A stretch of 53,657 nt of DNA, filler included, from Sphacelaria rigidula (Eukaryota): the NCBI GenBank assembly GCA_964200075.2. It is 5 parts of 5 records of this genome, joined end to end, with 100 filler letters (N's around TTAATTAATTAA, not from the genome) between each part and the next. Parts side by side here need not be neighbours in the genome. Positions count along the whole stretch, not along the records: positions 43,007 to 53,657 come from CAXNAA020006144.1; 4 more parts are not named here. The stretch is one strand, 5' to 3'. A program made the translations under genes and the position numbers. Under the pieces are notes generated by a model that was not told where the DNA came from, made no database searches, and was given only the letters and a program-made list of their open reading frames with translations. Shown piece by piece: positions 343-53,657 of this stretch; position 1 is the first letter of the stretch; each line of letters starts with the position of its first letter.

Positions 343-374
343 GGGGGCGTACTCATTTGTTGCTTGCCTCAGTC
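343..374 (-). mobile_element. Very short family-A LINE 3' tail
   Basis: GGGGG-CGTACTCATTTGTTGCTTGCCTCAGTC is the reverse complement of the family-A tail plus C-run. Confidence 0.7.
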
Positions 375-697
375 CCTCCGAGGCGGGGAACCGTTCCTAC
401 TCCCACCAAGAAAAAACCTCCACCAGTTCGGCGCCCATGACGTTTCTTCCATACATTATACATCACGCAAAAACCTTTACCCGTATCATGTCCCATTCCT
501 GACTCGCTGTCCGTCACCACCATTCATATACTACAGCGATCGTTTTTCCGCTACTGTCCCCATGTATCGAAGTCTTGTTCAAGCAACACGGTGTGGTGAA
601 GACTGACTGTGATTAATGGTGAAACAAGAGACGCGGACGACAGGGGAAAAGGGCACACGCGGGGGGGGGCAAAAAATGCTTTTGAGACTTGACTCAC

Positions 698-10752: not shown

Positions 10753-10833
10753 GCGTGCTCCGTCCCGGCCTTGTAGAGATGCTAGGTCAATGTTCACATT
10801 ACTATGGCATGCATGATCATCAGTACAACCCCT
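10753..10833 (+). mobile_element. Family-B 3' end at contig start
   Basis: GCGTGCTCCGTCCCGGCCTTGTAGAGATGCTAGGTCAATG...GGCATGCATGATCATCAGTACAACCCC. Confidence 0.75.
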
Positions 10834-13188: not shown

Positions 13189-13262
13189 GGGGGGCATACT
13201 CATTTGTTGCTTACCTTAGTCGTTCGACCATTGACTACGCATCCCTTTCGAGATGGAGCACC
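13189..13262 (-). mobile_element. Family-A LINE 3' tail fragment
   Basis: G6-CATACTCATTTGTTGCTTACCTTAGTCGTTCGACCATTGACTACGCATCCCTTTCGAGATGGAGCACC matches 46137-46210 in reverse complement. Confidence 0.8.
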
Positions 13263-17579: not shown

Positions 17580-20489
17580 CGTGTTTTGCTGTGTTGTTCT
17601 AGTCTACTGCACGATCCACCAGTGATCGCGGTGAGCGGTGCTTATAGATTGGGTGTTCTCTCCATCATCGGCGGCCGAAGGTACGTCGAAGTGACCTTGG
17701 AAGAAATCCGAAGAGACTTCAAAGTAATCTGGAGAAATCAGGGTGATCTCGCGTCAAGTCGCCATCGTGGCCCAAAACAGCTACGACGGTGTGGAGGCGC
17801 ACGAGAGTGACTACTGAAGGGCGCCTTTTCGATCGCGACTCCTCTCATACAGCAGTAGCTCGTGCACTGCAAGAGTGGAATAGTACCGCACGCATGAGGA
17901 GTGCGCTCCTCTCGTTTTTCCGAGTTGGTGTAAAGTACAGATGATCGGCATACCTTCTCTCCATGCCTGCATGCACTTTTCCCTGGGGACATACGACGAA
18001 CTGTGGCTCGCTTCCTTCTGTTACCGACTTCATATACAGAGATGATAGCCGCAGCCGGTCAAATCCTAGGGCTCACAATGCCCATTTTTGACAGAGAGAT
18101 CCTCATCCCAAAATCGCGTGAACAGCAGCAAGCACTAGGGGGGCTGGAATCATGCGCCATCGAGTTGATCTGAGTTCTGCACTGCGCACTCACACAAGTA
18201 TACAGTCGTGCTGCTGGATTATGAAACAAGTTGTGTTCTGGATTGAACGCTATCGTCGCCGGCACAGCCAAACGCACAGTCTTCGATAACGCCGGTATTT
18301 GAACATCACCAGCTACGTACCTGATATATGTCGCTCATTGCCTCGGCAGGGAAGAGTTGGATCAGCAAACCCGCTCAGTGATGACGCGGAAGTTGCCACC
18401 AAAGAAGGCTTTCAAAATGCCGAACACTATTTCTGATACGACGAGCATACTTCATGATGAATGCGAGGACGGGTTTTTGCGGAAAGGACCAGCCAGGTTT
18501 CTTGGGATGAGTCCCGCCCCCGATGGCTCGTGGACTTGCGAACCACTTGACCGAGAAGAGGGCCATGTGAGTATACTCGACTTGAGTTATATACACACAC
18601 ATATATATATCAAGATATCAGACAATCAAATGACTGCACCATCATCTTTTGGAAGACAGTAGCACAGATGGTGAACCGGGCAAACCGGTAAGACGTGGAA
18701 AGAGTGGTGCCGCGATAGCCCCCCTCAAACCAGCCCCATAACTGCCACCAAGCAAAAAAACACACATCGCGTGATAGCTGATTTCAGACTTCATGAAGTC
18801 CTTCATAGGGATGATATTGGCGAAAACGATCCCAAGCATGGGCGTTCCCAGCTGCGTGGTGTGCTCGGCTTGTGTGTTTTTGCTTTTCGTATGGATTTTG
18901 CCTCCTCAAATGAGCCATTTTTCCGGGCGGGCTATCGCGGCATGACTCGAAATATGCAAGGTTGTGTTCTGTAGGGTACGGGTATGTTCGGTAGGTGTGA
19001 AGCTGTGATCTGTACGGCATACCGGCTGAAATTCGGGTTTGCAGAGGTATAAATGAAGTATTTAATCGCCAAATGTCCGGAGCAAAGTTCGGCGATCGGG
19101 AGATACTGGGCATCCGCTCCATATTCCCGAAACAAACATCATCTCTGCACTCATTATTGAACGACGTACGGCCTGACCGGTCCCTCGGGGGTCCTGCGAC
19201 TACCCAGCCCCGGCTTCTGATCCTCGGGTACCTTTTCTCGATTGAAGCAATCCTGATCGTTCTTGTGAACAATTATAGGTATTCTTATTTCGAATTTCTA
19301 CCTACTCATTGCGCCAAAGCCGAAAAACTGTGCTATTGGATCAGTGACGGTCGATCACATCCCTCAGATGGACGAGGTCCCGACTCCATATCACCCCGAC
19401 AATACCTACTTGAGCATTGCGCCCTGAGCACCACCTGTTTCCCCCCCCCAATATGCATCGACACTTGAATTTTCGAGTGCTAAGGAAGAACGTCAAGCGA
19501 GAACTTCAGAAAATATCCAATTGCGAAATCGCCCAACCGAGCGATGTATAGCACAGGAAGGGTGAATCAATCCCGATCGCTCTCGTGAATGACTTTACAC
19601 ACCTTTCTTTTTTATCTCAACTACTCATTACGCTAGAGCAAAGAAGTTCCTTTTGAACCAAAAACGATCAACCTGTCGATTCAGCCCGTACATCATTCAA
19701 CATTTAGCTTGACTATGGTTCTTGCCTCCGAATGTGCGGTGTATCTCCCGATCCCCATATTCCGGGGTCAAATGTTCACTGGGATGAGCGGTGACACGCG
19801 AAAAAGCTATTGAACATTGCCGACTACGAGAAAATAACAAAGTCCCTCTGATTAAGCTGGAAAATTCTCTATGTCGAATCACTGCGTCGAATGTTTTTAC
19901 GCGGAAGTTTGAGGACCACTGTGATACCAGCTACAGTGTTGCTTTTTGTATTTTTCGATATGATTTCAAGGGTTCGTGTGCATAGTGCGCATCAGTCCTG
20001 CGTCAACAAGAGAGTCTGAGGCTATATAAGTGGCCACGTATTCAAAGTGGCAGGAAGTGCCGCTCATTTGTTGGCCGCCGTTGGGCGAACAGTGGACGAT
20101 AATAGAGTGACCCTTCACGCTTCATCACAGATGCTGGGTTTGAAATGTCTGCTTGAGGGCGATGGGCCGCTCAGTTGCCAGAACGAACAAATCGCACGAG
20201 AATCGTCTCGAGTCTTACCCATCAAAGAGACGTGTACCCAAACAGGTTTATGATCAGATAGGGTAGCGAAAACAACATGTTGACTTTCATGTCTAGAGCT
20301 TCATTTCTTACTGTTATCACCAAAACTGCCACGGTGTTGACAAACAAGAATGTGAATTAGATGTCGGCCGATCTAAACGTGAAAATCTTGGCATGCACCT
20401 TACTCCCATTACCGGGGTGTTCGTATCATATTCAGGAAGAGCCCCCTTCCCCCCCCCTCCCTGGAAGTGACGATACCAGGAAATAAAGC

Positions 20490-20742
20490 AAAAAGCAACT
20501 CATTGTAGGCTGTCATTTGAATGCAAGATAATCAGTAGGCCTCGGGCCGAACAATCTTAGCAGGGTACAGCCCACCCTTTATGCGACTCGCCGAACACAC
20601 CACGGCGCTTCGCGCTTGAGGGTTGAGTGCGAGCCTGGTCCGGCGAAAGCCCGCTATGCTCCGTCCCGGCTTTGAAGGGTGCGAGGTCGAGGTCAATGGT
20701 CTTATGATTATGGCATGCATGATCATAAGTACACCTCCTGCC
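20490..20742 (+). mobile_element. Family-B dispersed repeat (SINE-like, shares LINE 3' tail)
   Basis: GGGCCGAACAATCTTA...GCGACTCGCCGAACACA...GCTTCGCGCTTG...GAGCCTGGTCCGGCGAAA...GTCAATGGTCTTATGATTATGGCATGCATGATCATAAGTACACC. Other copies at 10753-10833, 21325-21404, 26230-26490, 32256-32358 and 53542-53595. Confidence 0.8.
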
Positions 20743-21504: not shown

Positions 21505-21550
21505 AATGGTCGAACGACTAAGGCAAGCAACAAATGAGTACGCCCCCCCC
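21505..21550 (+). mobile_element. Family-A LINE 3' tail at contig start
   Basis: AATGGTCGAACGACTAAGGCAAGCAACAAATGAGTACG followed by C8. Confidence 0.8.
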
Positions 21551-21774
21551 TGCCTTTTCCCCTTCCACCCCTCCTTCTCTTTTTAGCCCTGTGATTTTCC
21601 GCCGCGATTCGTCATTTAAATATGAGGAATTTTACCCCTGAGCGTACGTACCCCCAAAGTCTCGCGTAATATTTGTTCAACAACTGCATATCTTGGGTAC
21701 GTGTCCCTCCATTGATATAACACGGTCATGTACACATCACATCACATGACCCTCCCTCCCCTCCGACCACAGTA

Positions 21775-22524
21775 CCGGGATTGACGTTCGCGGATGATTT
21801 CGTGGGGATATCCCAAACACTGAAGGATTGCAGAAATAGGGAATGTACTACGTAAAATACACGGGGAAATGGGCAGTATTTGCCTGTAACGGAGACGAAC
21901 GTTATCCGATGGAGTCCGAGTGGAAGTAAGAGAAGGACTTACGGATTGTTAACCCTTATACAGACCCCGCTCAGCGTAGAAATATTACGAAAAGAAAACT
22001 GTCCTGAGGATTCACACATGGATAAAGAAATAGAACAGGGTAGGGCACAGACGGATAGGCAGGATGGCCGCGATCTTCAGAGGCTCGCACCTCGATACTA
22101 GGGTTTCAGATACGTATTTTGATGAATGTGACTGCGCCGAAGCTAGAATATGCAAAAGTCCGGGAAGGGAGCGCGAAGTTGTTGGATAAGTTGAGAACAG
22201 TACAAATAGCAGTAGCTAAGAAGATACTTGAATGCTCTAGAATGGCGCGCAATACCGTATTGAGAGCAATCGTTGGTACATCGGAGGTAGTAGCGAGAAA
22301 ACTATCGCTATACTAGGGGATAGATGGCGGTCACATACGGCGAAACAGGAAAGGGATGAGACACGCAAAGGGTTCTGTGTCGTGTATGGATGAAACGTAA
22401 TGACCACTCAAATGGTGGTGTTTCTTGAAGGAGTTGGAAAGGTCATCCGTCTCGAAATGGATGCGTGGTCGATGTTCAAACGACTAGGGCAAGCAGCAAA
22501 TGCATACGTTCCCCCCCCCCCCCC
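21775..22524 (+). mobile_element. 5'-truncated, decayed copy of the same LINE lineage
   Basis: FADDFVGIS at ~21788, then HLDTR and MNVTAPKLEYAKV...KKILECS, homologous to 44860-45360. Ends in a family-A tail followed by a C-run at ~22511-22524. Confidence 0.85.
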
Positions 22525-25700: not shown

Positions 25701-27820
25701 GTGGTTGTATCAACCGTCGAGAACTGACGTGGCTGCACTGTTGCGACGTGTTTGTGTTTCATCACGTTCACTGCACCTGATTTTCCTATGCTGTTCTTTG
25801 TCATCCTTCCTCTACTATTGTTCTTGTCGTACTACATACCCCCGCCCGCCGCCGTTGACGGGGCATGTTTCGCTGGCTCGTACCAGGTTTCCTCGTTCGC
25901 CACCGAGTTCCTCCAGCGTAAGCAAGCACTGAGGAGTGGTGGTGGAGGCGGAGGTGGAGGTGGCGGTGGAGGAGGGGGTGGTGGGGGTGGCGGCGGCGGC
26001 AGCGGTGGAGCCAAAGCACCCGCGATTGCCGCTCAGGTATGTGCATAATGCTGCTCGTGGTTAGACGATGGAATGTGAGAGTTCTGACGTCAGATTTGTA
26101 TCCTGTGTGGTGGATCTTGTTGCACGCTTTTTTGTTTTGTAGTTGAATTTGTTCTGCGTGTGCCCCCCCCCACCTTCCCCACCTTCCCCCCAAACACCCA
26201 TGATGTAGTGTGTATCCCGTGGCTGTCTCCGAAAGTTGCGATACGAGGCAATGAAGCAACTCTTTGTAGGTTGCAATCCATATACAAAATAATTTGTACG
26301 CTTCGGGCCGAACAATCTTAACAAGACGCAGCTCACCCTTCTTGCGACTCGCCGAACACATCGCGGTGCTTCGCGCTTGGTGGTTTATTGCGAGCCTGGT
26401 CCGGCGAAAACCCGGCGTGCTCGGCTTTGTAGGGATGCCGTCAATGATCATCTGACTACGGCATGCAAGATCATGCGTACCTATTCCCCCAGTACACACA
26501 TGAACACGCAAGAAGCCCCTTGAAGATAGCGACTTGACTCACTTGTTGTTTATCTCTTGACTCGGCATGCTGGAGTACTCGATTGAATCGGAATAATTTC
26601 ATTTTTGATGGGAAAAATGTTGCCGTTTGCCTGAAAACTGTGTATAATTTTTTCTCATTATGTATACAAGTGTATCTGTATTATTGATGAAGAGGTGTGC
26701 AAAATTTCTACTCGTTCCGATGAATCTCGTGATACTCACCGAGAAAAGTTGCTTCGATGCCTTGAACCTCCCATCTGTTCTGAACGCCAGTTTACACCTT
26801 TCGGTATATCTGGGCGTGTATCAGCCGGGGTCGCGCAAAAGGAAGGTCAACGCAGGAGATTTTATTTTATTTTATGTAAGCACTTCTCTTTCCTTCTGCG
26901 ATGCTTATTTTTTTTATCGCGAGAAGGGTTCAGCGGCCCCTTCCCCTTCTCGACCCCGAAGTCGAACTTTGTCTACCCACCACATAATCACTCCTTACTA
27001 CCGTGATGCTGCGAGAAGGAAATACAAATCGTGTGACTTCACCGACGTCTGTACCCACGTCCCAACCGTCAGAAGAGTTAGAGTTCACCAACTGAACACT
27101 GGTGCGACTGGCGAAAATTTTCAAACAATATACTTCCTCTGTCTCATCAGTAAAGGTACCTAGATTTGTACGGGCCCTTAACGACGTCCAATCGTTTTTT
27201 TTTTCATGAACTCTACGATGTTTTTTGGGTTGAGAAACTGTGTTCAAAATTTGCAGCTCGTGCTCGAACCATGCCGCCGAACTTCTGCAAAAAAAGTAGT
27301 CGGCGCAAAAATGGCCGCTTTTTGCCCCTTTCCGCGGGGAAAAAAAGTGTCATTTTTTTCTTCTGATTTTTTTTTGATCGAGTGGGAGTTCCTGGCCCCA
27401 GTGACGGCGGGGGCGATGTAAAAACAATCAAATTGTTTTTTCGACACTTTTTTCCCCCTCGGAAAGGGGGCAAAAAACGGCCATTTTTGGGCCGATTACT
27501 TTTTTTTGCAGCAGCTTGGCGGCATGGCACGAGCTGCAAATTTTGAACACAGTTTCTCAACCCAAAAAACACCGTAGAGTTCACGTAAAAAAAAGATCGG
27601 TCATCGTTAAGGGCCCGTGCAAATTTAGGTACCTTCACTTATGGGACAGAAGTATAGACTTCTTTCACCCTCGAATGTGATGCTGACTGACGTACCACAT
27701 TCACACCTCAGGCACTACATCATTCTCGTGCACATCGCTACAATTCTATTGCGCCGTGTGCAGGCCATGGAGGGCTGGAACGCCGCTCCTAAGAAGGGCA
27801 AGAAGGGGAAGAAGCACTGA
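22795..27820 (+). CDS. GIGYF/EXA1-like (GYF-family) protein, C-terminal four exons (5'-partial)
   Basis: Phase-consistent exons 22795-23039 (branch-like actaac ag|, ends GG|gtgagc), 25150-25306, 25887-26036 and 27764-27820 give ...GGGGFWETP...TSFGG/SGMPPVMAAWAGQQLRKINGKDDLTLLEFCMSLSDASEIRQYLAAYLGSTPE/VSSFATEFLQRK-(G)n-/AMEGWNAAPKKGKKGKKH*. The W..L..LEFC..L..E..LG..F..EFL..K pattern and KKGKK end resemble GIGYF/EXA1 C-termini. The GYF domain itself is not in the window. Confidence 0.75.
23136..23596. mobile_element. Fold-back element (MITE-like)
   Basis: GAGCGTAAAATTTGGTATA...CGGTACCAAAAGTT (23344-23409) is inverted against AACTTTTGGTACCG...TATACCAAATTTTACGCTC (23486-23553). Outer repeats are CTGGTTTTGAAGGCT and AGCCTTCAAAAAACCGG. 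Confidence 0.65.
23864..24336. mobile_element. Fold-back MITE (~470 bp near-perfect palindrome), GGCC termini
   Basis: Left arm GGCCGGATGTTATGGCTAACAGA...TTTTGGGACGTTTGACCCACCTTTTGACCCC pairs with right arm GGGGTCAAAAGGTGGGTCAAACGTCCCAAAA...GCCATAACATCTGGCC. Flanked by TAG/TAA. Confidence 0.85.
26230..26490 (+). mobile_element. Family-B dispersed repeat copy (intronic)
   Basis: Colinear with 20470-20742 (AAGCAACTC..TGTAGG, CGGGCCGAACAATCTTA, GCGAGCCTGGTCCGGCGAAA, GGCATGCA.GATCAT). Ends at a C-rich stretch. Confidence 0.8.
27133..27652. mobile_element. Fold-back MITE with Stowaway/Tc1-mariner-like TIRs and TA flanks
   Basis: TA|CTTCCTCTGTCTCATCAGTAAAGGTACCTAGATTTGTACGGGCCCTTAACGA... pairs with ...TCGTTAAGGGCCCGTGCAAATTTAGGTACCTTCACTTATGGGACAGAAG|TA. 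Arms are ~200 bp. Confidence 0.8.
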
Positions 27821-32255: not shown

Positions 32256-32358
32256 GGTCCGGCGGAAACCCGGCGTGCTCCGTCCCGGCTTTGTAGGGAT
32301 GCGAGATCAATGGTCTTATTTATGACTATGGCATGCATGATCATGAGTACACCCCCCC
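32256..32358 (+). mobile_element. Family-B 3' end at contig start
   Basis: ...GGGATGCGAGATCAATGGTCTTATTTATGACTATGGCATGCATGATCATGAGTACA followed by C7. Confidence 0.8.
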
Positions 32359-33498
32359 ACACACACACACACACACGCCTCTGACGTTGAACGCCTCAGA
32401 GGTCAAACCACCACCACCAGCAACGGATATCCTCTACCCTAGGAATCGTAATCCAGCCATCAAGTGTCTACAAGAGATACGTACTCGAGGTAAAAAAGAT
32501 AAATGGAAACACTCGCCGAAGTAAGCTCGATGAGGGTAGAACGCACATACAGATGGACGTCCATATTACAGGTGGATGTCCATCTCTCTGATGGGCTGCC
32601 ACATGGACATTAATTGATGCCCCAGATGAACGTCCCAGATGGACATTATACCCTCAATACGTTTCCCAGATGAATATGATACCCCAGATGAAGACTGCAC
32701 GCCCTGGCAGTACAGTTTTGACAATGATATCTGTTGTCCAGGGTGAGAAAGGCTGCACGACTTTTTATTTTCCTTGACAGAAGGAGGAAACCTGACCCAA
32801 CACTTACCCCGCAAGCGGGTTCGTGTGATGATTACCCAGAGGCTCGGTGAGACGGCCTCGCGGTAGTCATGTGGGCTAGGCACCTCGAGCGTTCGCAAGC
32901 TTTGCTGAAGGCAGTGTGGGGGTCGGATCCGCTTAGACCTCGTATCAACTTGACGCAGTACACGCGCCGCCATGCTCTCAAGAGCTCCGGCCCTAGGAAA
33001 GCTGCATCATGGTGCAAGGATCCCTGAGGCTTTCCCTATCGTCTTCCCTTGTTGCTTCCTTCATTTCGCACCCGTCGTTCCATCACTCCGGGCTCACATT
33101 CGCTTCTTGTAGACGCCCTTAGTATAGCATGAAGGTGATCATGGGGATCCTGAACCGCAGTTTTCCCTCTTGTGCTATGCAGGAGTTGGCGTGTGATCTT
33201 CGAGTGACCCCTCTCATAAGGGACTCGGAAAAAAGTGGAAAGCCTTGAAAAACAGCGAGTCAGCTACCAAACATGTTTCAAATGACTGTAGCGAGTACAT
33301 AGTGTTTCACTCGTGTGGCGTGGTTCGCACTTGTACCCGGCACAGGCGAGCTACCTTGACGAGTCCAATTTGAACAGAAGAGAAGCGATGGTGTGGTCAT
33401 GGTAAGACCGCCGTTCTGCAATTGTTGGATGAAGGGGATGTGTGAGAATTGAGCTTTGATCTGAGAGTGTTGTTGCTGCGGTTTGCTTTGGCTCTCAG

Positions 33499-36400
33499 AT
33501 TTTGGAGGATCGACTGAACGACAAAAAGGAGGCCCTCCTGGAGAAGGAGCTCGTACTGGAAGAAGTTATTTCTCTTACGCAGAAGCTGCGCAAGCAGGCG
33601 TCGGACGGAAGAGAGCAATCGCTGCTCGTTTCCAAGAAGGTAATCACTTCGTATCGTTGCACACGCCCACGTATCACACTCACCAGGAATTTTGTTCTCG
33701 TCCCGAGTATTGTGCCTGGTGGGGGTTCAGGTTGCTGGGTCCTTCACTGGACAGGGTACCCTTAAGGCTGCTGATCTAAATCCGCCTTTCCAGAGACAGT
33801 GCACTCCAATGTGCAAGGTAAGGCGGTGATGGGTTTTGGCGGATTCGAAAACATCGCGGTAGGGGGGCTGGCTGAGAAAGATGGGACGAGGAAGCGAGAG
33901 CGGCACGGGGAAGGATATCCATCTATGATAGGGCATATATTGGTGTTGACTGCTACGTGGTCGAACGCTTTGCACATTCCTCATGTACAACATGCGCCTC
34001 CTGTCAAACGCACTGAGGTTTCGACACTGTCTTGCGGTTTGCATTCATCTTTTGGTTGCGCATTCTCAACAACCATCCTTGGTGAAAAACACGACATTCA
34101 GGATGTCGTGAAGTTGTGGTCAGATCACGAATCGTCCAATCACTTCTAACCGTTTTCGCTCGTTTGGGCCATACCCTTGTCCCCCTTGATTACCACCTGT
34201 TGTGTACGTTCTCAGGTGAACGACTTCCAAGGACGCATCCGAGACACGACGCGACGAATGATGGCTACCGTGTCAGAGCTGTCAATGCACCAGGCCACGG
34301 CTCTCAAGCTGCAGCAGGAGAAAATGTCAAGGGAGAGAGAGTTGCAAGACGCCACGTGAGTTCTGACACATCTCTCCTGTACCGATACATGATCGATGTA
34401 ATGTTGACGTCTGGTGAAGTAGAATTGCCAACCACCAACGTCCAAGAATCATGCTCGCTATGAGCATGACCATGTCGTTCTGTTCGACCCCTCTTTCTTT
34501 TTTTCTGTTCCTCCTTCTTTCTCAGATCGTGTTTCAGTTTCGTTTCCTCGGGTACGTCTACCATGAGACAACGGCTGGACCCCTGGGGGGTCAGTTAAAG
34601 TGCGACAATCAATCAATCAAAATCAAAACGTCAGTCGGTATCGCGTGCCTTTGTGCCTGCAGCAGCGTGGAGTTCTCAAGCAGGAACATGGCAAGCAGCG
34701 GTAACCGCAGTTGTGAATGGTTTTGGCAAGTGGTTGTAGAAACATGACAAAGCAATGACATCGACAGAGAAACAATGCTTGCAAAAACTGATGATTTCAA
34801 CATGAGCAGATAATGATGGCCATCGGTTGCTGATCCCACCGAGATACTTGAGATTTCTTCCTCGCCGCTTGATTCGGGATGCATAAAGAATTTATGTAAC
34901 ATGGCAAATGCCTGCTTAACGCTAGTAACAATGTGAACACAACACCATGGCCTAAATCGAACGACGGTCTCTTCTTGAAAAATACATCCTCTGTACCACA
35001 AGTTAGGTCAATTATATTTCTACAGGCCCTTAAGTCCGAGTTTGTTTGTTTTTTCATTATCGTTCGTTTCAGCGTTTTTTCGGTTAAACTCCACTGCGTT
35101 TGCACATGTCCATCGCCATTATGCAGCCGAACGAGGATAAAAATTGGTCGACCCGAAAATGGCCGTATTGAGCCCCTGTCAGGGGGGCTAAGAAAACGGA
35201 ATAAAGCAAACAAAACAAATAGTAAGCCGTCTTCGTCGTCACTGGGGCTTGATACTAGATAGTCTCAAGCCGTTCTGAAGGCGTCCTTATCGTTTTATTT
35301 ACCACCTTTTCCGACGTTCCCGCCCTCTGCCGCGCCCTTACCCCGGTATGCCCTTAAACGCTTCCTCTGTCTCACAGTTAGGCCCCAAAACTGGAAGAAG
35401 AAAAAAAACGCCAAAATAGAGCATATTTTGGCCTACTTTGTTTTATAAAAATATAGCTTTGTTGTCGTTTTTTAGTTCGTTAGCATCGTCTGCGTCGTGT
35501 CTTTCTGATAAACCCAACCATAGCGTCGTCAACACCTCTCTCTCTCTCTGTTGGGGCGGTATGATCTGCATCCCATAGTGCACCTAACTTATGGGACAGA
35601 GGGAGTATAGTAGTAGTACATGTATTTGCTAATATCTGTTGCGAACAAATCGTCCACTCGCGACAGCCATCGTCTGCGTTATATTAACAGTACATTGGGT
35701 CTACCACACTTGAAACGTCTATTGTGATAACTCATTCCAGCAAAGGCTCCTGAATATACGGGGAGGGTTCGGAACCGGTTCAAGTATCTAATTTTCCGTG
35801 ATCCCTAACTGTTCGCGAATCCTTGGATATTCACCGTTAGGTACAGGAAATTAGCGGCAGAAATGAGTCCGATGTGCAGATTTCCACTCTTCTTGTTGCT
35901 CTATCCCTACCCAGATGTCGATTTAGTAGCTAAGGCTCCACGCATATCTTGGTATCCCTGGCCGAAAACAGCCGATCATCGAAATTGAGGGTGGAGCTTT
36001 TCATTGAGGATGAGAATCCGGAGAGTTAAAATCTTCGTATTCACACAAAATCTTCGAAATATGGTTATATTCCTTCATCTACTGGTAGCTATTGACAACT
36101 ACTACACGCCATACAAATTTGAATTCTGATAACCGGTATGTTGGGGTCCTAGGTGAAGAATCAATTTTGGGGAGTGTAGCTGATCCGATCGGACCGCCTG
36201 AATTCCCCGAAATTGTTTCTTCACCTAGGACCCCAACATTTCGGTTATCAAAATCCGAATTCGTATGGCGCATACTACTGATCGATAGCTACCAGTCAAT
36301 AAAGGAATGTAATCATATTTCGAAGATTTGGTGTGGATATGAAGATTTTATTCCCCTGGGTTTTTTTTTTGCTGTTCCTTTCTTTTTGTTTTCCTTCTTC

Positions 36401-37923
36401 TTCTTTTCCTTAGGAGCGTGTTTCAGTTTCGTTCTTCTTGGGTACGGCTATCATGAGACCACAGCTGGACCCCTGGGGGGTCAGTTAAAGTGCGACACTC
36501 AATCAATCAATCAATCAATCTTATCCTCAATTAAAAGTTCCATCCTCAATTTCGATGATCGGCTGTTATAAAAACCGTGTGTTTCTATTTCTATGTTTCG
36601 ATCTCGTCCACTGAGATGGAGCTTTTGAACACTCGGTAGGATTGGAAACGACCAAGACTACAAATCGCCAAACTCCCGATTGTGTCAACCGCAAACACAA
36701 GAAACATGGACCTGAAGCGTGGTCGTCCATAGCAGTCTGATGGTTTCAGCTCACTAACATGACTTGTAGAAGAGGTTTTGTGCCCAGGGTCAGCTTGTAA
36801 GATTACTTCCTTCCATCGGAATATTTTCACGTCCGTTCCTTTTACAGGTTGACGAAATGTTTCTTAATTTGCACTGCTACGCGCATTCTCTCTCACAACG
36901 AACGCGATATATCTTTTTTTACCTTCAGGTGGAGGGTTGAGCACGGGGAGCCACCAACAGACGAAGCTGTATGGGAACTTCACCGCTTGGAGCAGAAGGC
37001 CATCAACGACCAGACGATGCGACTGGAGAAGGCGGAAACAGAGGCTGCTGGCGAGGCACCGATACCTCCCTCCATGGTGATCCTCGTTGCAGTGACTGCG
37101 TGTCAACGTGTGTTGCACTTTCTCTTGGCCTAAAGAGATCATCCGAACGTGTGCTTTCTCAAGCCAAAAGACTTGAAAAATCACACTTGCCTCATTTTCG
37201 TATAAAAAAAAAAAAAAAAGTGCTTGTCTGTCGGGGTGGTCCCGATACACATCGAGCGAATCACCTAGTTTAGAGCCTCAACCATGGTGCAGTGTGTGAA
37301 ATCACCAACATCATCACGCCTCTAAGTCGCACCATATCATAGAGAACCACATGCCAAATTTCAAGTTCCCGTGACCTCACGCATGCTCTTACACAGCCTT
37401 CGGTGGTTTCATGTGGCTGCACTCGTAGTATACCCAGAAAAACTGGTTCTACTTGATGAAAATTTACCCGTAGTGCATAGTTCGTCGATGCGGCAAACAT
37501 GACCCGTAGCCACGAAAAAAAAATTCCCCTTGTACCCTCGAGTTCGGCCGCCGCTTGGGGTGCGGCAGCCTCACGTCTTTTGTGAAGAACAATCCACATT
37601 CGCACCGCAGGGAAGCCACGACCGTGAAGCCTGAAAATCGCTCTTGCGAGGAGATGAAAGCTCCGCACTATCGAATAATCCCGCTTCATGTCCTTCCCTC
37701 ATGAAGTGTTTTGACCGCCGTCGCACGGTGTACTTACTACATTCGTGCGTGTTTCCTAACCGTTCAGATTCGCACGACCGCGGAGCCGAGGCCAAATGCC
37801 TACATCCCAGACGAACTGGGTATTCCGAAGCCATACGGGGGGTCGGGGCCTTTCAAACCTACCGAGGCCGGCACCACCATGCGGCACATTCGGCTGCCGA
37901 AACCCAGAGAAATCGAGATTTGA
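33499..37923 (+). CDS. CCDC146: Coiled-coil domain-containing protein 146 (MBO2 homolog), last four exons (5'-partial)
   Basis: Exons 33499-33639, 34216-34355, 36929-37076 and 37768-37923 are GT-AG and in phase. They encode [17 protein letters not shown]..., [25 protein letters not shown] and the characteristic C-terminus [49 protein letters not shown]. Confidence 0.92.
34490..34627 (+). mobile_element. Family-C repeat: T-rich segment + CTGGACCCCTGGGGGGTCAGTTAAAGTGCGACA + (ATCA)n tail (probable retroelement 3' end)
   Basis: Similar copies at 36355-36520 and 49355-49585, and a diverged copy at ~13330-13455. The copies end in (TCAA)n or a decayed form of it. Confidence 0.7.
34985..35605. mobile_element. 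Stowaway-like MITE (TIR CTCCCTCTGTCCCATAAGTTAGG), TA-flanked, with extra internal left end at 35361
   Basis: TA|CATCCTCTGTACCACAAGTTAGG at 34985, CTTCCTCTGTCTCACAGTTAGG at 35361, and CCTAACTTATGGGACAGAGGGAG|TA ending at 35605. Confidence 0.65.
35967..36567. mobile_element. Fold-back element whose right arm is interrupted by a family-C repeat
   Basis: AACAGCCGATCATCGAAATTGAGG pairs with CCTCAATTTCGATGATCGGCTGTT. Inner arms are TGTTGGGGTCCTAGGTGAAGAA and TTCTTCACCTAGGACCCCAACA. The insert spans ~36355-36520. Confidence 0.8.
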
Positions 37924-43006: not shown

Positions 43007-43349
43007 GATATAAGCTTGTACAAAGTGTGGGGAAATCGTCGGCCAAGCTTTCGGCAGCGGAGGTCTACACGGGAGTATCAGTGGAGTAGTGACCCATGGT
43101 GAACCGTACACGGAGTGGGAAAGGTGATGTACGGGACATCCCGATGTGAGTAAGACCTTGTGTTGTGCAAGCCGCCCTTGAACCTTACACGATGAAAATG
43201 ACCTCCCTGGAGGAAAGTAACCAGTACCGCAGAAGATAGAAGATACGATCGTGGGACGCCTGGATGGTTTACCATGAAGACCGTCTGGCACAAATGTGAG
43301 GTACTTGTGACAAAGGCGTTGCACTTGGCTCAAGGCTAAGAGCCCGTGT

Positions 43350-46210
43350 TGAAGGCATTATTCAGTGTCGTTGAGCCAGCAAAAGAACTGGAAACACCAG
43401 ACCCCCAACAAGTACTAGGATTGGGATGTCCCAGTGCGTTGGGTACATTCCACCAATACACTTGAAACAATTGAGCTGGAAATTCTCTCGAAGGAGATCG
43501 AGAGAGAGAGAGACGGTAAGGGAGGGCGGATGGAAAAGTAAAGGGTGGACGGGTACAGTACTAGTAGTGCTGGTACTCGGAGTCCGTAGCGATATGACGA
43601 GAATAGAGTTCAAAAGGAAATGCAATGGAGTTGGATAATACTGTTAGTCAACAGGAAAGGTAGAAAGGGAGGGAGAACACTTGCGATTCACACTAAAACA
43701 GGGAGCGAGCAAGGAGTGGGAAAGGATAGAAACAAGTACGGTATCGGCATGGGTTAGAAGGGTAGGGTGGAGAGTATGCGTTGCTAACGGAATAACAAGC
43801 CTAGGACGTGGTCCACGGGGAGGGGGAGAGAGGTAGGAACAGGTAAGTGCCCGGAAGGGGAAGGATAGGGGACATAGCGGCCCAAAGCAAATAGACAAAA
43901 ACTGACACATAAACGGGAAGAACAACCAAGCAAGGGAAAGTAAAAGTAAAGGCGACGGAGAGAGAACAGTAGACAACACGAGAGCAGATAATGATTCGGA
44001 GAGGAAGTTGAAAATAGGATCGTGAAACGTGTGTGGATTCGTCGCAGACGAGCACGAAAGAATAGAGATAGCGCAACACGTAAGTGAAGGCGACCTGGAT
44101 TTAGTAGGAATCCAAGAGTCATAAGAGAAAGAGGGGGCGGAAATAGGATGCAAAATTAAAGAGTACGCATGGATAAGGAAAAAGCGGGAGGGGCAGAAGT
44201 CCAAGAGCAGGGAGCGGGGGGAGTAGGATTCTTGGTCAAGGAATACCTGTGTGACAGTATAGAGGTGATCGACGACACAAAATTTGACGAGGGCATATTG
44301 ATAAGGGTACGAGGAGGGCGGGGAACGGAAGACTTCTTCGTAGGTGACATCTACATGCCCCCAGAATCGAAGAGTAGGGTGAACGATATTCAGCGGAGTT
44401 GGAGAGATAGCAGCAGATGTACACAAGTATAAAAGGTAAGGAGATTTATTGTTAGTCGAAGATTTTAATGCAAGGGTAAGAAGAGCAGGTCAACCGGATG
44501 ATATCATTGGCCAATACAGGCAAGATAAGAAAAATACGGATGGGGGAGGAATGCTCAAGTTCCTTGAGCATAACGAGATGAAGACGCTGAACGATAGAGC
44601 AAAAAAGCCAGAAGCGCAACGGACATGGACGAGAAATGCAAAGGAAAAGAGAGAGAACGCTCCGTGCTTGACTATATAGTGGTAGAGCGTGGAAGTAGTA
44701 AGGAAATGGAATCTTTTTTTATTTTTTACAAGGAGTTACACAAGGCTGTACGGTACCACCCACTCTATTCAAGGTATTTACTGATGACCTGATGATGGCA
44801 ATAGAAGAAGCAAATCAAGGAGTCAAGGTGGATGAAGATATGGTATCAGGATTGATGTTCGCGGATGATTTTGTAGGTATTTCAGAAACACCAGAAGGAT
44901 TACAGAAACAGATAGACAAGGCGCTAGAAGACACTATGAAATGGAAAGTGACAGCAAACGCTAATAAATGCGCGGTACTCGTCCGTAACGAAGATAAGAA
45001 AAATCCGGTGGAGTTCAAATGGAAGTGGGGAGAAGAGGAGTTGCCCACCGTAGACCAGTATACATACCCTGGCGTAGAGATCTCACAATACTGTTCTTGG
45101 GATGCACACATACACAGAGTAATAGAAAAGGATAAGGCACAGATAGGCAGGATGGACGTGAAACTCGGAGACTCGCATCTAGACACTAGACTTAAGAGAT
45201 GTATCGTGATGAACGTGATCGTACCAAAGCTGGAATATGCAGGAGAAGTATGGGAGGGGAACGTGAAGTTTGTGAAGAAGTTGGAAACAGCACAGATGGC
45301 AGCAGCTGAGAAAATATTTGGATGCTCGAAAACGACGAGTAATGCAGCATTGAGAGCAGAGTTGGGATTGCACTCACTTAAAACAAACAGAAACATGAGG
45401 AAATTGCGACAGCAATATAGCGTAAAGAACATGCAGAGAAAGAGGCTGCCAGCTATAGTTGATGAGGCTGAATGGAAGAAAATTACGGAAGGGCGGACTG
45501 GAATCAGGTACGATAGAGAAGTCGAGAGAGTATGGAAGGAGATAGGAAAAGACCTAGACGATATTGTCCGTAGATGAGGGCGCGGTGTACAAGACAAAAG
45601 TAAGAGACATCATAGGAATAAGGGGAAAAGAAACGCCCGGACGCAAAGTAGACGAGGAAGAACACCTGGAGATATACGGGGGGTTGAGAGAGAGGACAGA
45701 GATGAAAGTATATTTGCATGGCCCAATAGACGCGGCGAAAAAAGTGAAACTGGGATTTCGTGTGGGGGACCTAGATCTGCCAGAAAGAAGAAAGGGGTAT
45801 ACCAGTCGTCGAGAGGAGGAGGAAGAAGTAGATGCACAGAATTCCCCCTGTGGCAAAGCAATAGAGAGAAGAAGTCATAAAGTGCCAGAATGTGAACTAT
45901 ACAAGGAGGAACGGGACGTGCTAGCGGGGGGAATGCGGCACGTGAACGAAGGTGGCATGAAATCGTTTAATGCATTAGACAGTAGGGAGGAAACGATGGC
46001 TATACTAGGAGATGGATGATGGCCACAGACGGCGAAACAGGGCGGGGATAAGATATGAAAGAGATTTTTGTGCAAGGTATAGAAGAAACGTAATGAACAT
46101 CTGAATGTTGGAGGTGTCTCTATTAAGAGTGAGAACGGTGCTCCATCTCGGAAGGGATGCATGGTCGATGATCAAACGGCTAAGGCAAGTAACAAATGAG
46201 TACGCCCCCC
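43350..46210 (+). mobile_element. Degenerate non-LTR retrotransposon (LINE; APE endonuclease + RT), internally deleted, C-run 3' end (family A)
   Basis: APE motifs across stops and frameshifts at 44010-44690 (IGS*NVCG, VGIQES, GGVGFLVK, IYMPP, DFNARV, LDYIV). RT C-half at 44728-45577 (QGC, MFADDFVG, KLEYAGEVW). The same frame as ORF 45564-46019 reads through stops to V*KKRN...KASNK* followed by GTACG-C7. The 5' boundary is approximate. Confidence 0.9.
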
Positions 46211-48629
46211 ACCACCCGCATCGTAGGATGACTCTTTCGTAGTCGGCGACTTTTCAATAGGTCTTTTCGCGTGCCGGCGCTCAACCCAGCGAACGCGTGC
46301 TCCCGAAGTGTAGAGATAGAGAGATACTGGGCATCCGCTCCACAACCCGAAACAAAAGTCATCCCTCCCTCCGCTCAATTATTGTGCTCCACTTGCATTC
46401 CATGAAAGAAACTGCAAAAAAAAACTACAAAAAATAACACCCAAATCCCAACCCAAGACCATTTCACTCCTAGGCTGCATTCATGATCACCATAAGACCT
46501 GAACTCTGAAGTCAGCCTTCATCTCGATGGGCTGTACGGCCGTTTCTTCGTTTCACCGAAAAAACGCTAAAAAAATGGGGATGGGCTACCGCCACATCAT
46601 TACGGTCTTTATTGAACGGCTCACGGGCAGAATTGACAGGGGGTCTCATTGGCCGTTTTTAACCCGAACACACATTTCGCTTCGGCTCTAGCGCGAAAAT
46701 AGCTAAAAATGAAATAAACGAGTTTGTAAAATCACCCACGAGAGCGATCGCGATGTTTTACCCCCCACCCCCCACCCCCGTGCTATGCAGAGCTCGGTTG
46801 GGCATTTCCGTTTTTGGGTACATTTCCTAATTTCCCCGCATAGTATCCTTCAGCACGAGAAAAAGGTACTGTAGCGTCGATAGATTCTAGGCGACATAAT
46901 GACAACTCTCACATCGGTACACTCCTGACGAAGTCTGGCGCGGCGCTTAGAGTTATGAAAATGCTTCCCGAAGCAAATTTCGTCGGGGGAAAGTAAGCGA
47001 CAATGGATCACAAAATAGGCTCGAGTTGGGCCAGCCAAGAATCAATGCTATTTTTGGCGGTCGGACAGTCTTACCCTGCTTAATTTTAGGATTTAGGGGG
47101 CTGGAATTTGACATGAAAAAATGTATCAAAATGCGGGAAGTAGCGTAAGCTCCCAGAAGAAAAAGAAGGGAAAAAAATCGATTTGAAATTTTACCCTTGT
47201 TGTCGAAATGGTACACAGAGAGAGTTCCGCAAGGGCGGGGTACGACGTTTTCGAATCCCGACACGGTAATGCTACGGTAGAGCTTGCATTTTTTGTTTCT
47301 GGGTCTCGTTTTTGTACGAGCCCAAATATATGGGGGCTTACTGTGCAACCCAAATCTCCGGGGACCGGACATGAAGATGCATGCAGGGGCCTTTTCGCGA
47401 ATCCGCATCATTTTCAGTCTTTTTCAATCGAAAAAATGATATCGATTCTCACAATGACCCGTACAACACCCCGAGAAACGTTTTCGCTAAAAACCTGCAA
47501 CTCCTACCGTAGCATCACTCGACACATACTATAATTTCTTCGTTTTGCCGAATTTGTTTCCTCCGTTGACATCATGCGCCACGCGGTACATTTTCCCCTT
47601 CATTTGTTTCAGCGGCAGAGCGCGCATCCGGAGGTTGGTCTGCAGCTCACAGCGATATACAAACATCAGGCTAATTGGAGAGGCTCTAGAGATTATTGTG
47701 TGCCGAGCGAATGCACGCGGTTTTCTTGACTGGCCCAGCTCGTAGGCAGATCCAACTAAAGCATGATGTCCCGTTTCCTCCTGCTGCCCTACCTCGAAGT
47801 AATAACAACGTGAAGTGGGCTCGTCCATTTTGTTCGTTTCGTTCGTTGCTGGTGTTCCCCTTGGGAAACCCGTACCCCTCACGAAGTTCACGTCAAGGAT
47901 TCTCGAGGCTCGGGGGGATCGTGGAGGATTTCACCACGGCCGCTACACACAAATCGTACATGATTAGTGGGATGATGGATCAGTTTCACGGTTGCAGTTC
48001 GGTACAGTTTAGCAGCGTGCCTCGGTTCATCACGATTCGACGGTTGATAGATCAACGGTTCGTCACGGATCGACTACTGTAAGCCGCGACGAATTCAGCC
48101 GAGTTCACGAGACAGACGCACCCAATGAGAATAAACTAGTAATGGGAACACTTGCTGAGACAGTCCCGTGCAGAACGGAAGGTGAAAGGAGAGGGCGAGA
48201 GGGAAGAGAGAACAAAACGAAAAGAGAGGGAAAGCGACGAAAAAAATACCCCAAGACATGAAAAGACACAAGAGCGGAAACAGAGTAGTGCCACGGTGAG
48301 GATACATTTTTTTTTTCTGAGGCTCATCACTTTCGAAACCTCTCGATGAAAAACGTCTAGGCCCCAAGTGTGCTACCTTAGACAGTCCTTCCCCGAAAAT
48401 GTTCACCACTACCATGGCGCTATTCAACACAACAGGCTAAGATCCGAAACCAATCCAGAGATAATCCCAACAGGTCCCTGCCAGGGCCTCAGGCAAAAGG
48501 GCTGAGCAAGAAGCAAGGCCTTGGCGAAAGCAGGTTGCAACTCAGCTATCGGAAAACTACACCAATGGCAGGGCAGCACTCTCAGTCGCTGAGACCGTTT
48601 CTTACGGTTTGTATTCTGGGGGGGGGGGG

Positions 48630-49045: not shown

Positions 49046-49470
49046 TTCTCCAGAAAATAGCACCAGTAAAAAACGGTCTCGAGGGTTTTGTTAATGGGTC
49101 TAATTTTGTTTTGCGAAATCTTCTACTTTCTCCAAGAAGAAATGTGAGAGCAGATCTCTGAACCACGTCACTCAACCAGGTCAGGCGATAGATTGATTCA
49201 AGACTGGCTAGAGTGGTGCAACGACATCCCCCCCCCACCCACGCCCATCCGAGAAAAATGGCTGGTTTAAGGGGCCAATATATAGATGTAAACCAAAATA
49301 ACAAGCCGAGCACACCGACTAGCTGGGAACTCCCGTCCTTAGGATTATTTTCGCCGATGATTTTTTTTTCTGTTCCTTTTTTCTGTTCCTTTTTTTTTTT
49401 GAGCGGGTTTCAGATTCGTTTTTGTTGGGTACGTACGTCTACCATGAAACCACGGCTGGACCCCTGGGGG

Positions 49471-49540
49471 GGGGCGTACTCATTTGTTGCTTGCCTTAGT
49501 CGTTTGACCATTAACCACGCATCCTCTTCGAGACGGAGAA
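49471..49540 (-). mobile_element. Family-A LINE tail inserted inside a family-C repeat, with apparent 7-bp TSD
   Basis: Insert is flanked by CTGGGGG at 49464-49470 and 49541-49547. Uninterrupted host sequence occurs at 34575-34600 and 36465-36490. Confidence 0.8.
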
Positions 49541-50619
49541 CTGGGGGTCAGTTAAAGTTCGACAATTAATCAATCAAAAAAATCAATGTCGCCCAAATGA
49601 GGGAATATACGCTGGGCACACTGAGCGCGATGGCTCACTGACGAGGCGACCACTGTGTGTCCACGTATGCTTAGCACTGTTAGACCAACAGATTTACTGT
49701 TGGTCTCTTATTTCGATAGTCGTTCATATCGGGTGAATAGCAGTACAACCTCCGCATCCTCAGAGGATTGCAACAGTTCTAAGATTGTTGGCGGAGCTTC
49801 CGGGTCTGCCGGGTTGATGTAAAATTCTAGGATTATCATTCCTTCATTATATATTTAGTTCGGTGGGATTAATGTACAGTCCCAGGATTCTCGTGTGTAA
49901 GAATATTCTCATGAGTAAGAACATTCTCTTCAGCATGAACTTAGCGTAGCGCATTGATCCGAGGGTACTCGTGGGTTGCTCCCACACCCTCTCACTCTAT
50001 ATTTCTTCCTCACTGTCTTCACTGAGATTTTCTCGGCCACATAAGCGCCAATTTCCAACATCAGTCTTCTCGACGAGCAAGTGTGCTTTACCGCCACTTC
50101 GTGCTGGTCCTGTGCATTCCCTTGACATATCACGCCACATCAAGAACTGCCATGTTGTTTCAAGCACGCGGTCTAATCGCCAATATCCTACGGGTATCGC
50201 CACAAAACAAACATCGCAAACAATCGTGGATTGGACTGAGTGGCATCTCCCCCAAGGCAGGATGCGGTGTTATCATCCCCCCGTAAGGTTCGGCATTATA
50301 TGCATGAAGCAGGCGCTCTCCAGAATTCATGTTCTACGCTTTGCACAACTTACCCCAACGGTCTTCTCGATGTATTTCCGTGTCATAAACGTGTTTTCAA
50401 TCGCCAGATCCATCCTGACCGCCCGCGGGCTTTCCCCCCATTCTCCTACGCGGGCTGCGTACCCTGAATTCACAACCATGCTGATGCGCGACTGAAATTG
50501 TAAACACAACACAGTTCCTCTCCCCCGTCACAAGCAAGCCTCCGTTCGTACGTTTTACAATCATGCGCAAATTACGTCGGCGACTATGCTAAGGATGCAC
50601 GTAATTTATCTTTCGGTGA

Positions 50620-53541: not shown

Positions 53542-53657
53542 GGGGGGGTGTACTCATGACCATGCATGCCATAGTCATAAGACCATTGACCTCGCGGGGG
53601 AGCGGGGGAGGGGGGCGTACTCATTTGTTGCTTGCCTTAGTCATTTGACCATTGACC
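53542..53657 (-). mobile_element. Stacked family-B tail (53542-53595) and family-A tail (53610-53657)
   Basis: G7-TGTACTCATGACCATGCATGCCATAGTCATAAGACCATTGACCTCGC, then a G-rich spacer, then a G-run and CGTACTCATTTGTTGCTTGCC. Truncated by the window end. Confidence 0.8.

Follow-up and report, generated by a model that had tools for sequence, protein, structure and literature searches.

Long interspersed nuclear elements (LINEs) of the RTE clade, as characterised in PMC2887409 for RTE-1 of C. elegans, Bov-B and the RTEs of Lepidoptera, possess one open reading frame (ORF) that joins an apurinic/apyrimidinic endonuclease (APE) to a reverse transcriptase (RT), end in an extremely short 3' untranslated region (UTR) of simple repeats, and are represented by many 3'-partial copies. 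For the brown alga Ectocarpus, the supplement of a 2025 paper on transposable elements (PMC12477816) lists RTEX-1_Ec32 as "single EN-RT ORF; (C)n 3'" (EN, endonuclease) with a "C-rich" target-site duplication (TSD), and RTEX-2_Ec32 as "(C)n termini/TSD". The same supplement gives consensus lengths of 5.5-5.9 kb for the catalogued RTEX elements, a 607-bp RTEX-N1 that "can be present in tandem" and whose 60-bp 3' end is 83% identical to RTEX-1/2, and a 188-bp RTEX-N2_Ec32; for other Ectocarpus elements it records ends of (CAA)n, in the RTE families, and of (CA)n, in the CRE family. In the main text of that paper the term "C-rich" is absent and the trait is not discussed, the entries standing in the supplementary table only. 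A LINE tail of comparable form, which runs directly into a C-run, is described here from a 53,657-nt stretch of the Sphacelaria rigidula assembly GCA_964200075.2 (the window), where it is typified by positions 46131-46215. This feature is probably the 3' terminus of a brown-alga RTE-X-type LINE without poly(A), which inserts at pre-existing C-runs and duplicates them.

The LINE family of the window (family A) agrees with RTEX-1/2 and the N1/N2_Ec32 elements, as these are described in the supplement, in its single EN-RT ORF, its (C)n end, its C-rich duplications and its partners with a shared 3' end of ~60 bp. Tandem occurrence, very high copy number and a brown-alga host are further likenesses to the Ectocarpus RTEX families catalogued there. 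It is unlike them in sequence, since the nearest named protein, from Ectocarpus, has an identity of 69% over the RT and a homologous C-terminus, and family A is thus a separate sequence family; its non-coding partner in the window measures ~230-270 nt in the two whole copies, against 607 and 188 bp for the catalogued RTEX-N1 and RTEX-N2. The first-pass annotation of this DNA could not tell whether the family was already catalogued: the trait matches the RTEX rows of PMC12477816 by description, and the sequence family itself differs. As in the RTE clade outlined in PMC2887409, the 3' UTR is short (GTACG followed by (C)n), poly(A) is lacking and 3'-partial copies are flanked by duplications; almost no 3' UTR and no A-tail are therefore the norm of that clade. 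Unlike the RTE clade, for which the same source describes di- or trinucleotide tails and insertion that is not sequence-specific, the element of the window carries a single repeated C and finds the same run in its target. Among the PDB matches of the RT, all of them relatives of L1 or R2, L1 ORF2p (E 2e-21) and one R2 protein (~1e-21) are equally far, and the source names of the 120 listed homologues indicate no clade. A literature search for a poly-C or C-tailed non-LTR (non-long-terminal-repeat) element returned no relevant paper, and the "poly-C" of PMC5381506 was rejected as a parallel because it consists of internal 3' UTR tracts in L1s whose ends are still poly(A). As a kind, the trait is already catalogued (brown-alga RTE-X families with (C)n ends); what the window contributes is a family related to these, a target site described to the base, and a class of mini-copies.

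Junction of the element end with the C-run

The window consists of five equal slices (~10.65 kb each) separated by spacers of the form N44-TTAATTAATTAA-N44, and the nearest named proteins to those of the window are from Ectocarpus and Undaria. Several slice ends fall within family-A or family-B repeats, as would be expected where short reads were assembled and contigs break off at abundant repeats. Within 46131-46215 the last codons of the frame are AAG GCA AGT AAC AAA TGA (KASNK and a stop), with the stop TGA at 46197-46199 (+), the 5-nt 3' end GTACG at 46200-46204 (+) and then C6 (46205-46210) followed by ACCACCC, these features being read from the sequence; the C-rich stretch that adjoins the element end occupies 46205..46217 (+). 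The first-pass annotation had described a decayed ORF2 ending in KASNK and a stop, followed by GTACG and a C-run. This end was confirmed at 46197-46210; the supposed ORF2 is the sole ORF in the intact relatives.

A 27-nt tail pattern with at most 3 mismatches matched five places in the window and none in 100 shuffles. BLASTN and a profile scan then gave 12 significant tails, seven of family A and five of a related family B. Family-A tails are located at 348-374 (-), 13195-13262 (-), 21505-21542 (+), 22445-22510 (+), 46139-46204 (+), 49475-49540 (-) and 53616-53657 (-), spread over four of the five slices, and all seven directly adjoin a C-run, with lengths in this order of 5, 6, 8, 14, 6, 9 and 6. 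The end of the tail is ...KASNK-TGA-GTACG, except in one old copy, where ...ATACGTT precedes the run; at 22510 the decayed copy reads ...GCATACGTT before its C14. By comparison, at least five C within 0-2 nt downstream are found at 0.5% of random window positions. No A-run follows the tail at any of 16 ends (window families A and B and external copies). More than 20 nt past the end, the flanks of different copies resemble one another no better than random pairs from the window do (mean local score 7.4 vs 7.2). The variable length of the run and the unlike flanks indicate that the C-run does not represent a fixed stretch from within a longer element. The junction of tail and C-run is confirmed as real and is far above chance. 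The earlier claims of seven tail copies on four contigs with a common end point beside a C-run, and of no copy with an A-tail, both hold, the latter in 7/7 window copies and 4/4 external ones; the outcomes named beforehand as contrary, A-tails or runs of fixed length inside a longer element, were not encountered, as run length varies and flanks differ beyond the first 20 nt.

The remaining family-A copies are short, decayed or cut. The short copy at 13195-13262 stands with its C6 (13189-13194) at 13189..13262 (-; BLASTN and profile scan). A tail cut by the slice start, with C8, is located at 21505..21550 (+; profile scan), and a decayed, internally deleted copy that extends from the C-terminal part of the RT to the tail, with C14 (22511-22524), at 21730..22524 (+). 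An old diverged copy at 343..600 (-) ends ...AAATGAGTACG (348) with C5 (343-347), and a tail cut by the slice end (53616-53657) has C6 (53610-53615), together 53610..53657 (-; profile scan).

Copies elsewhere were sought by an exact-pattern scan of metagenome, metagenome-assembled genome (MAG) and viral contigs. Three tail copies were found in metagenome contigs and one in a contig of a MAG labelled uncultured bacterium; the viral contigs gave 0 matches to the pattern. All four external copies run into a C-run (C8 in L001, C10 in L002, CCTC7 in L003 and C13 in L006), and each is attached to an ORF. In L006, a MAG contig of 5,259 nt, an intact ORF of 1,333 aa has its stop 5 nt before the C13. 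This contig (L004/L006, G001:C43) places an intact eukaryotic LINE ORF in a bin titled uncultured bacterium, carries the sole tail copy in that 4.6-Mb bin, and was probably assigned to the bin in error, being of algal origin. The window copy at 46204 and L002 have CATCGTAGGATG in common 13-14 nt past the run, with ~48% aligned-column identity beyond (46205-46320 vs L002:1-113), and their elements are 87% identical over 300 nt; the two may go back to a single old insertion, present in two genomes, or to a composite that was copied. A 3' transduction or a longer target motif was rejected for this pair, as other copies are without that flank.

Evidence at the scale of sequencing runs was obtained from Logan contigs of four runs aligned to L006 at 85% likeness or more: X1 (best match to a window stretch), X12 (another organism), X13 (guessed to be RNA) and X19 (an RNA library). 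Runs X5-X11 (organisms B, C and D), in which only the words of the tail matched (share 0.13), were left out of this mapping. Aligned contigs, which at k=31 are not genomic copies, numbered 123,775 in X1 and 19,014 in X12. Among the loose ends listed, 1,499 X1 contigs end at the outer edge of the run (L006 place 95), with a consensus of a G-run followed by heterogeneous sequence (agreement 0.39). Loose ends with G-runs are likewise found in X13 at L006 places 95-99, and those of X19, at places 97-103, have a heterogeneous consensus (agreement 0.42-0.55) with no clear G-run. No T-run, the counterpart of poly(A), is present among the loose ends listed in the run contigs. Depth in X1 reaches 9.8 million in the 3'-most bin, against 0.05-0.87 million in most body bins (12-180x); L006 shows dips in depth at 3697-3872 and 4753-4928. 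In X19, which comes from an alga-associated sample, contigs with 0-1 mismatches to the intact element have depths of 456-838 (L006 2646-4542), and diverged copies have depths in single digits. This is a hint of expression of the element, and DNA carry-over would also fit.

Target site and its duplication

The 66-nt, 5'-truncated family-A tail at 49475..49540 (-) is the sole copy for which empty paralogous sites are present, and the filled and empty sites were compared flank by flank. The filled site reads ...AACTGA-CCCCC-AG-[66 nt]-CCCCCCCCC-AGGGGTCCAGCC..., which may also be written AACTGA-CCCCC-AG-[66 nt]-C9-AGGGGTCC. The 5' copy of the duplication, CCCCCAG, is located at 49541..49547 (-), and the 3' copy, C9 and AG with 3-4 extra C, at 49464..49474 (-). 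The empty sites read ...AACTGA-CCCCCC-AGGGGTCCAGCC... (AACTGA-CCCCCC-AGGGGTCC in the second notation) with no insert. The first, at 34585..34590 (-), agrees with the filled site in 32/38 positions of the left flank and 39/51 of the right, and the second, of the same structure at 36475..36480 (-), in 32/39 and 41/54. Since both empty paralogues possess C6 at the junction, the target already had C6, the duplication is C5-6 plus AG, and the 3' run gained 3-4 C. The host of this insertion is itself a repeat, (GATT)n followed by ...GTCGCACTTTAACTGA-C6-AGGGGTCCAGCC, which is present three times in the window (34530-34690, 36420-36580 and 49400-49640), once with the LINE.

Imperfect direct repeats flank further copies of both families. 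The family-A copy at 22510 has 5' CCCTCCCTCCCCTCCGACCAC and 3' C14-TCGATCAC, and that at 13195 has 5' C7GCCGCC and 3' C6ACCGCC (3' flank CCCCCCACCGCC). The family-B copy at 20733 lies between C9TCCCTG and CCTCCTG, and that at 53549 is inserted, between C-rich direct repeats, in the C-rich stretch 3' of a family-A copy. At least five C are found within 25 nt upstream in four of the six copies with a visible 5' end (background 2.6%), and five have imperfect direct repeats that open with a C-run or a C-rich stretch. The empty C6 sites and the repeats led by C-runs show that most of the C-run belongs to the target and its duplication. In this it corresponds, with another homopolymer, to the duplications of L1, which are led by A. 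Because the target-site duplication begins with the duplicated C-run, every copy has a C-run after it and many also have one before it. The first-pass annotation had proposed a C-tail and/or an endonuclease that prefers G/C tracts. Of this, the C-run as target stands, by the empty sites and by the junctions in 7/7 window and 4/4 external copies; a separately made tail is improbable. The survey of 3' flanks and duplications that it called for was carried out in the window and gave C-runs in 7/7 copies and one verified duplication of C5-6 plus AG.

These arrangements suggest the following route of insertion. The APE would nick the bottom strand at the 3' end of the G-run, and the freed G-run would pair with the C-run that follows GUACG in a read-through element RNA from the parent copy. 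Since a C-run is no product of polyadenylation, it would have to be templated from DNA. Holding the conserved last ~60 nt, the RT would begin copying at GUACG, slippage of register within the homopolymer would alter the length of the run, and a second nick would follow 7 to ~20 nt downstream. Judged from the sequence of the junctions, specificity may reside in the endonuclease, in the pairing of RNA and target, or in both.

Several points weigh against insertion at C-runs by an RTE-X-type element. Two of the six visible 5' ends (A-22510 and B-26480) are without five C within 25 nt upstream, and three of the five family-B ends are followed only by degenerate C-rich sequence (ACCCC, CCTCC and CTATTCCCCC). 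A clean empty site is present for a single insertion; the other four duplications are imperfect and were read by eye. The copies at 46204 and in L002 are not to be counted twice. Contigs of the runs cannot reveal RNA ends, and beyond the loose ends and joints listed a further 3,673 loose ends and 1,031 joints exist. L006 is repetitive up to its last base, so that the 5' end of the full-length element is not reached. Finally, the placement of the window family in RTE-X is inferred from matching descriptors.

The same evidence bears on the best of the other explanations, that of a true C-tail on the RNA, encoded at the end of a master copy or added enzymatically, with insertion largely independent of the target, so that the C-run would be sequence of the element. 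Such a tail would account for the verified insertion, where the 3' run exceeds the 5' duplicate and the empty sites by 3-4 C, and for long runs such as the C13 of L006, the C14 at 22511 and the X1 loose ends, which lengthen the 13-nt run of L006 by ~18 more G. Slippage in a homopolymer can also give extra length, however, and the C6 stands exactly at the junction in both empty paralogues. C-runs are moreover found at 5' ends too, at a frequency well above background (4/6 vs 2.6%), and an RNA C-tail is accordingly considered improbable.

Intact element, partner family and mini-copies

Intact single ORFs are known from P0003 (1,360 aa), P0004 (1,328 aa) and L006. They consist, in order, of an N-terminal domain, the APE endonuclease (PF03372, PF14529), the RT (PF00078) and a C-x-C-x8-H-x4-C motif, and they end ...GAPSRKGCVVNGQMTKASNK, also given as ...VVNGQMTKASNK, with the stop 5 nt before the C-run. 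The 66-nt tail unit is the coding C-terminus of these ORFs. The C-terminal peptide is kept in the Ectocarpus relative (...NAPSSRGRVVNGLTAK) and partly in a relative of 48% identity. This conservation fits a 3' end that would be under double constraint, as coding sequence and as putative cis signal. The longest family-A copy of the window, decayed and cut by the slice start, extends over 43007..46204 (+; tblastn with P0003, and sequence). It comprises a 5'UTR-like part (43007-43515, +), an ORF part (43516-46196, +; tblastn with P0003) and, within the latter, a Pfam match to RVT_1 (44702-45577, +). The ORF part matches only aa 1-383 and 867-1360 of the intact ORF, indicating that this copy is internally deleted (aa 384-866). 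Upstream of the ORF in L006, at 4740-4800, there is a diverged inverted piece that resembles the tail (...GAGACGGAGCACC).

Family B is represented by five window copies, of which two are seen whole (26254-26480 and ~20464-20733), and shows no match to the LINE protein by tblastn. Families A and B align over the last ~60 nt only: GGGATGCG.GGTCAATGGTC..ATGACTA.GGCA.GCA...ATGAGTAC. The element at ~20464-20733, with C9-TCCCTG before it (20449-20463) and CCTCCTG after it, occupies 20449..20733 (+). The copy at 26254..26480 (+) is followed by CTATTCCCCC, and its nearest 5' C-run is ~44 nt upstream, so that no clear duplication can be seen. A tail cut by the slice start (32256-32351) with C7, then (AC)n, is located at 32256..32358 (+); at 32352-32376 the C7 passes directly into (AC)9, two simple repeats back to back at the end of a retroelement. 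Another tail cut by the slice start, at 10753..10827 (+), is followed only by ACCCC, a decayed end, and a 42-nt tail (53549-53590) has C7 (53542-53548), together 53542..53590 (-). C7 is thus the run at two of the five family-B ends. Family B and the 66-nt mini-copy have the ~60-nt 3' end in common with the LINE and are probably mobilised in trans, and family B looks like the RTEX-N type of partner in Ectocarpus. A consensus fold of families A and B gives a weak hairpin (-4.2 kcal/mol, with 2 of 12 pairs changed on both sides), and this predicted hairpin is a hint of an RT-binding stem-loop. Over the whole window, Rfam at the gathering threshold gave 0 matches and ARAGORN 0 tRNAs. No tRNA-type head for family B was accordingly found, though the end of slice 1 looked tRNA-like by eye.

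A class of mini-copies of ~66 nt is also distinguished, in which the 5' ends cluster within 5 nt, C-runs are present on both sides and units often stand head to tail. Their 5' ends lie 64-68 nt from the element end, most often 66, as judged from two window copies (13195 and 49475) and from many joints in three runs. On L006 the 5' ends of the short copies fall at 171-175, and the loose ends behind 171-173 are G-runs. Joints that lead from L006 170-175 to 95-101 represent short copies in tandem, and joints that go back 73-81 in X1, X12 and X13 represent units that follow one another head to tail, a single joint having as many as 43 contigs among those listed. One idea is that, in a copy bounded upstream by a C-run, the terminal G-run of the cDNA would pair with the C-run of the target, which would give a fixed 5' end and tandem units.

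These tandem joints, together with the clustering of short-copy 5' ends at one point on L006 and at the two window copies, would also be produced if the feature were mainly a minisatellite unit, the 66-nt tail and its C-run, spread by recombination, with a LINE that only shares or has captured the sequence. Against this, single dispersed copies have unrelated flanks, one 66-nt copy can be compared with empty sites and has a duplicated target, the same 66 nt encode the C-terminus in intact ORFs, and the copies in other assemblies are each joined to an ORF; a mainly minisatellite origin is therefore very improbable. That the G/C runs are artefacts of sequencing chemistry or assembly, such as poly-G read ends or breaks at repeats, is hardly credible, for although slice ends fall within these repeats and a G-rich stretch with G37 stands at the start of one slice, the runs beside the tails are internal and bordered by unique sequence to left and right, recur with varying lengths in independent assemblies and in four runs, and agree with a curated catalogue based on long reads.

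Runs of at least 9 nt are about as frequent in the window for C and G (8+7, 15 in all) as for A and T (6+8, 14), where composition leads one to expect ~0.25 and 0.37. Most of the long C/G runs, such as C19 at 39506, G13 at 48618 and G37 at 53-89, are not beside a recognisable tail. The stretch at 1-89, at the very start of slice 1, is G-rich and of low complexity (G12, G6, G7 and G37), and could be genuine or an artefact of read ends.

Parallels with L1 and meaning for brown-alga genomes

Mammalian L1 elements carry a poly(A) tail, are inserted at a TTTT/AA nick and are flanked by A-led duplications, and the LINEs Waldo, Mino, Kibi, Koshi and Dong belong to R1, Tx1 and R4-like clades. The RTE-X-type element of the window was described in the first-pass annotation as the mirror image of the A/T system of L1, and this description is supported, since at the verified insertion the C-run opens the duplication and the target carried C6, in parallel with the A-runs of L1. 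By analogy, its 3'-end homopolymer would be complementary to the homopolymer exposed by the nick, the duplication would open with that homopolymer, and partners would be mobilised in trans, as in L1. It is unlike L1 in that the run is of C/G rather than A/T and does not come from polyadenylation, in that the sequence of the 3' end is conserved and common to the partners (recognition of the stringent type), and in an RT that is only distantly related to L1 ORF2p. Neither a poly(A) tail nor an A-led duplication, the hallmarks of the poly(A)-dependent L1 type, was found at the 16 ends or among the loose ends listed. A 2013 review (PMC3812793) gives 5'-TTAAAA as the L1 consensus and lists APE LINEs that target microsatellites: Waldo (ACAY), Mino (AC), Kibi (TC), Koshi (TTC) and Dong (TAA). 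Like these, the element of the window is of the APE type and inserts within a pre-existing repeat that forms its 3' boundary, as verified here for one insertion. Waldo, Mino, Kibi, Koshi and Dong are animal elements, and none of those listed in that review targets a mononucleotide run of C or G.

Tentatively, and with less than even confidence, the system may be regarded as a self-feeding G:C counterpart of the A:T system of L1, in which the C-run would serve both as landing site and as primer-pairing site and would be duplicated by every insertion, so that each jump would create a further target. If so, it could account for C/G runs of at least 9 nt being about as common as A/T runs, and the 66-nt unit between C-runs would be a minimal retroelement. 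Any transcript consisting of a C-run, the 66 nt and a C-run would then be copyable, and renewed pairing of the terminal G-run of the cDNA with the C-run of the target would fix the 5' end and build tandem arrays.

For the annotation of brown-alga genomes, a repeat end that is very abundant in them is thereby explained, as are the breaks of short-read contigs there and the presence of a eukaryotic LINE in a bin with a bacterial label. A terminal repeat of a single C, together with a C-run as target, is a natural counterpart to the pairing of poly(A) with T-runs in L1. The system could therefore test the pairing of primer and template against the specificity of the endonuclease in the choice of target by LINEs, and could define a very small cis element (~60-66 nt) that is sufficient for mobilisation.

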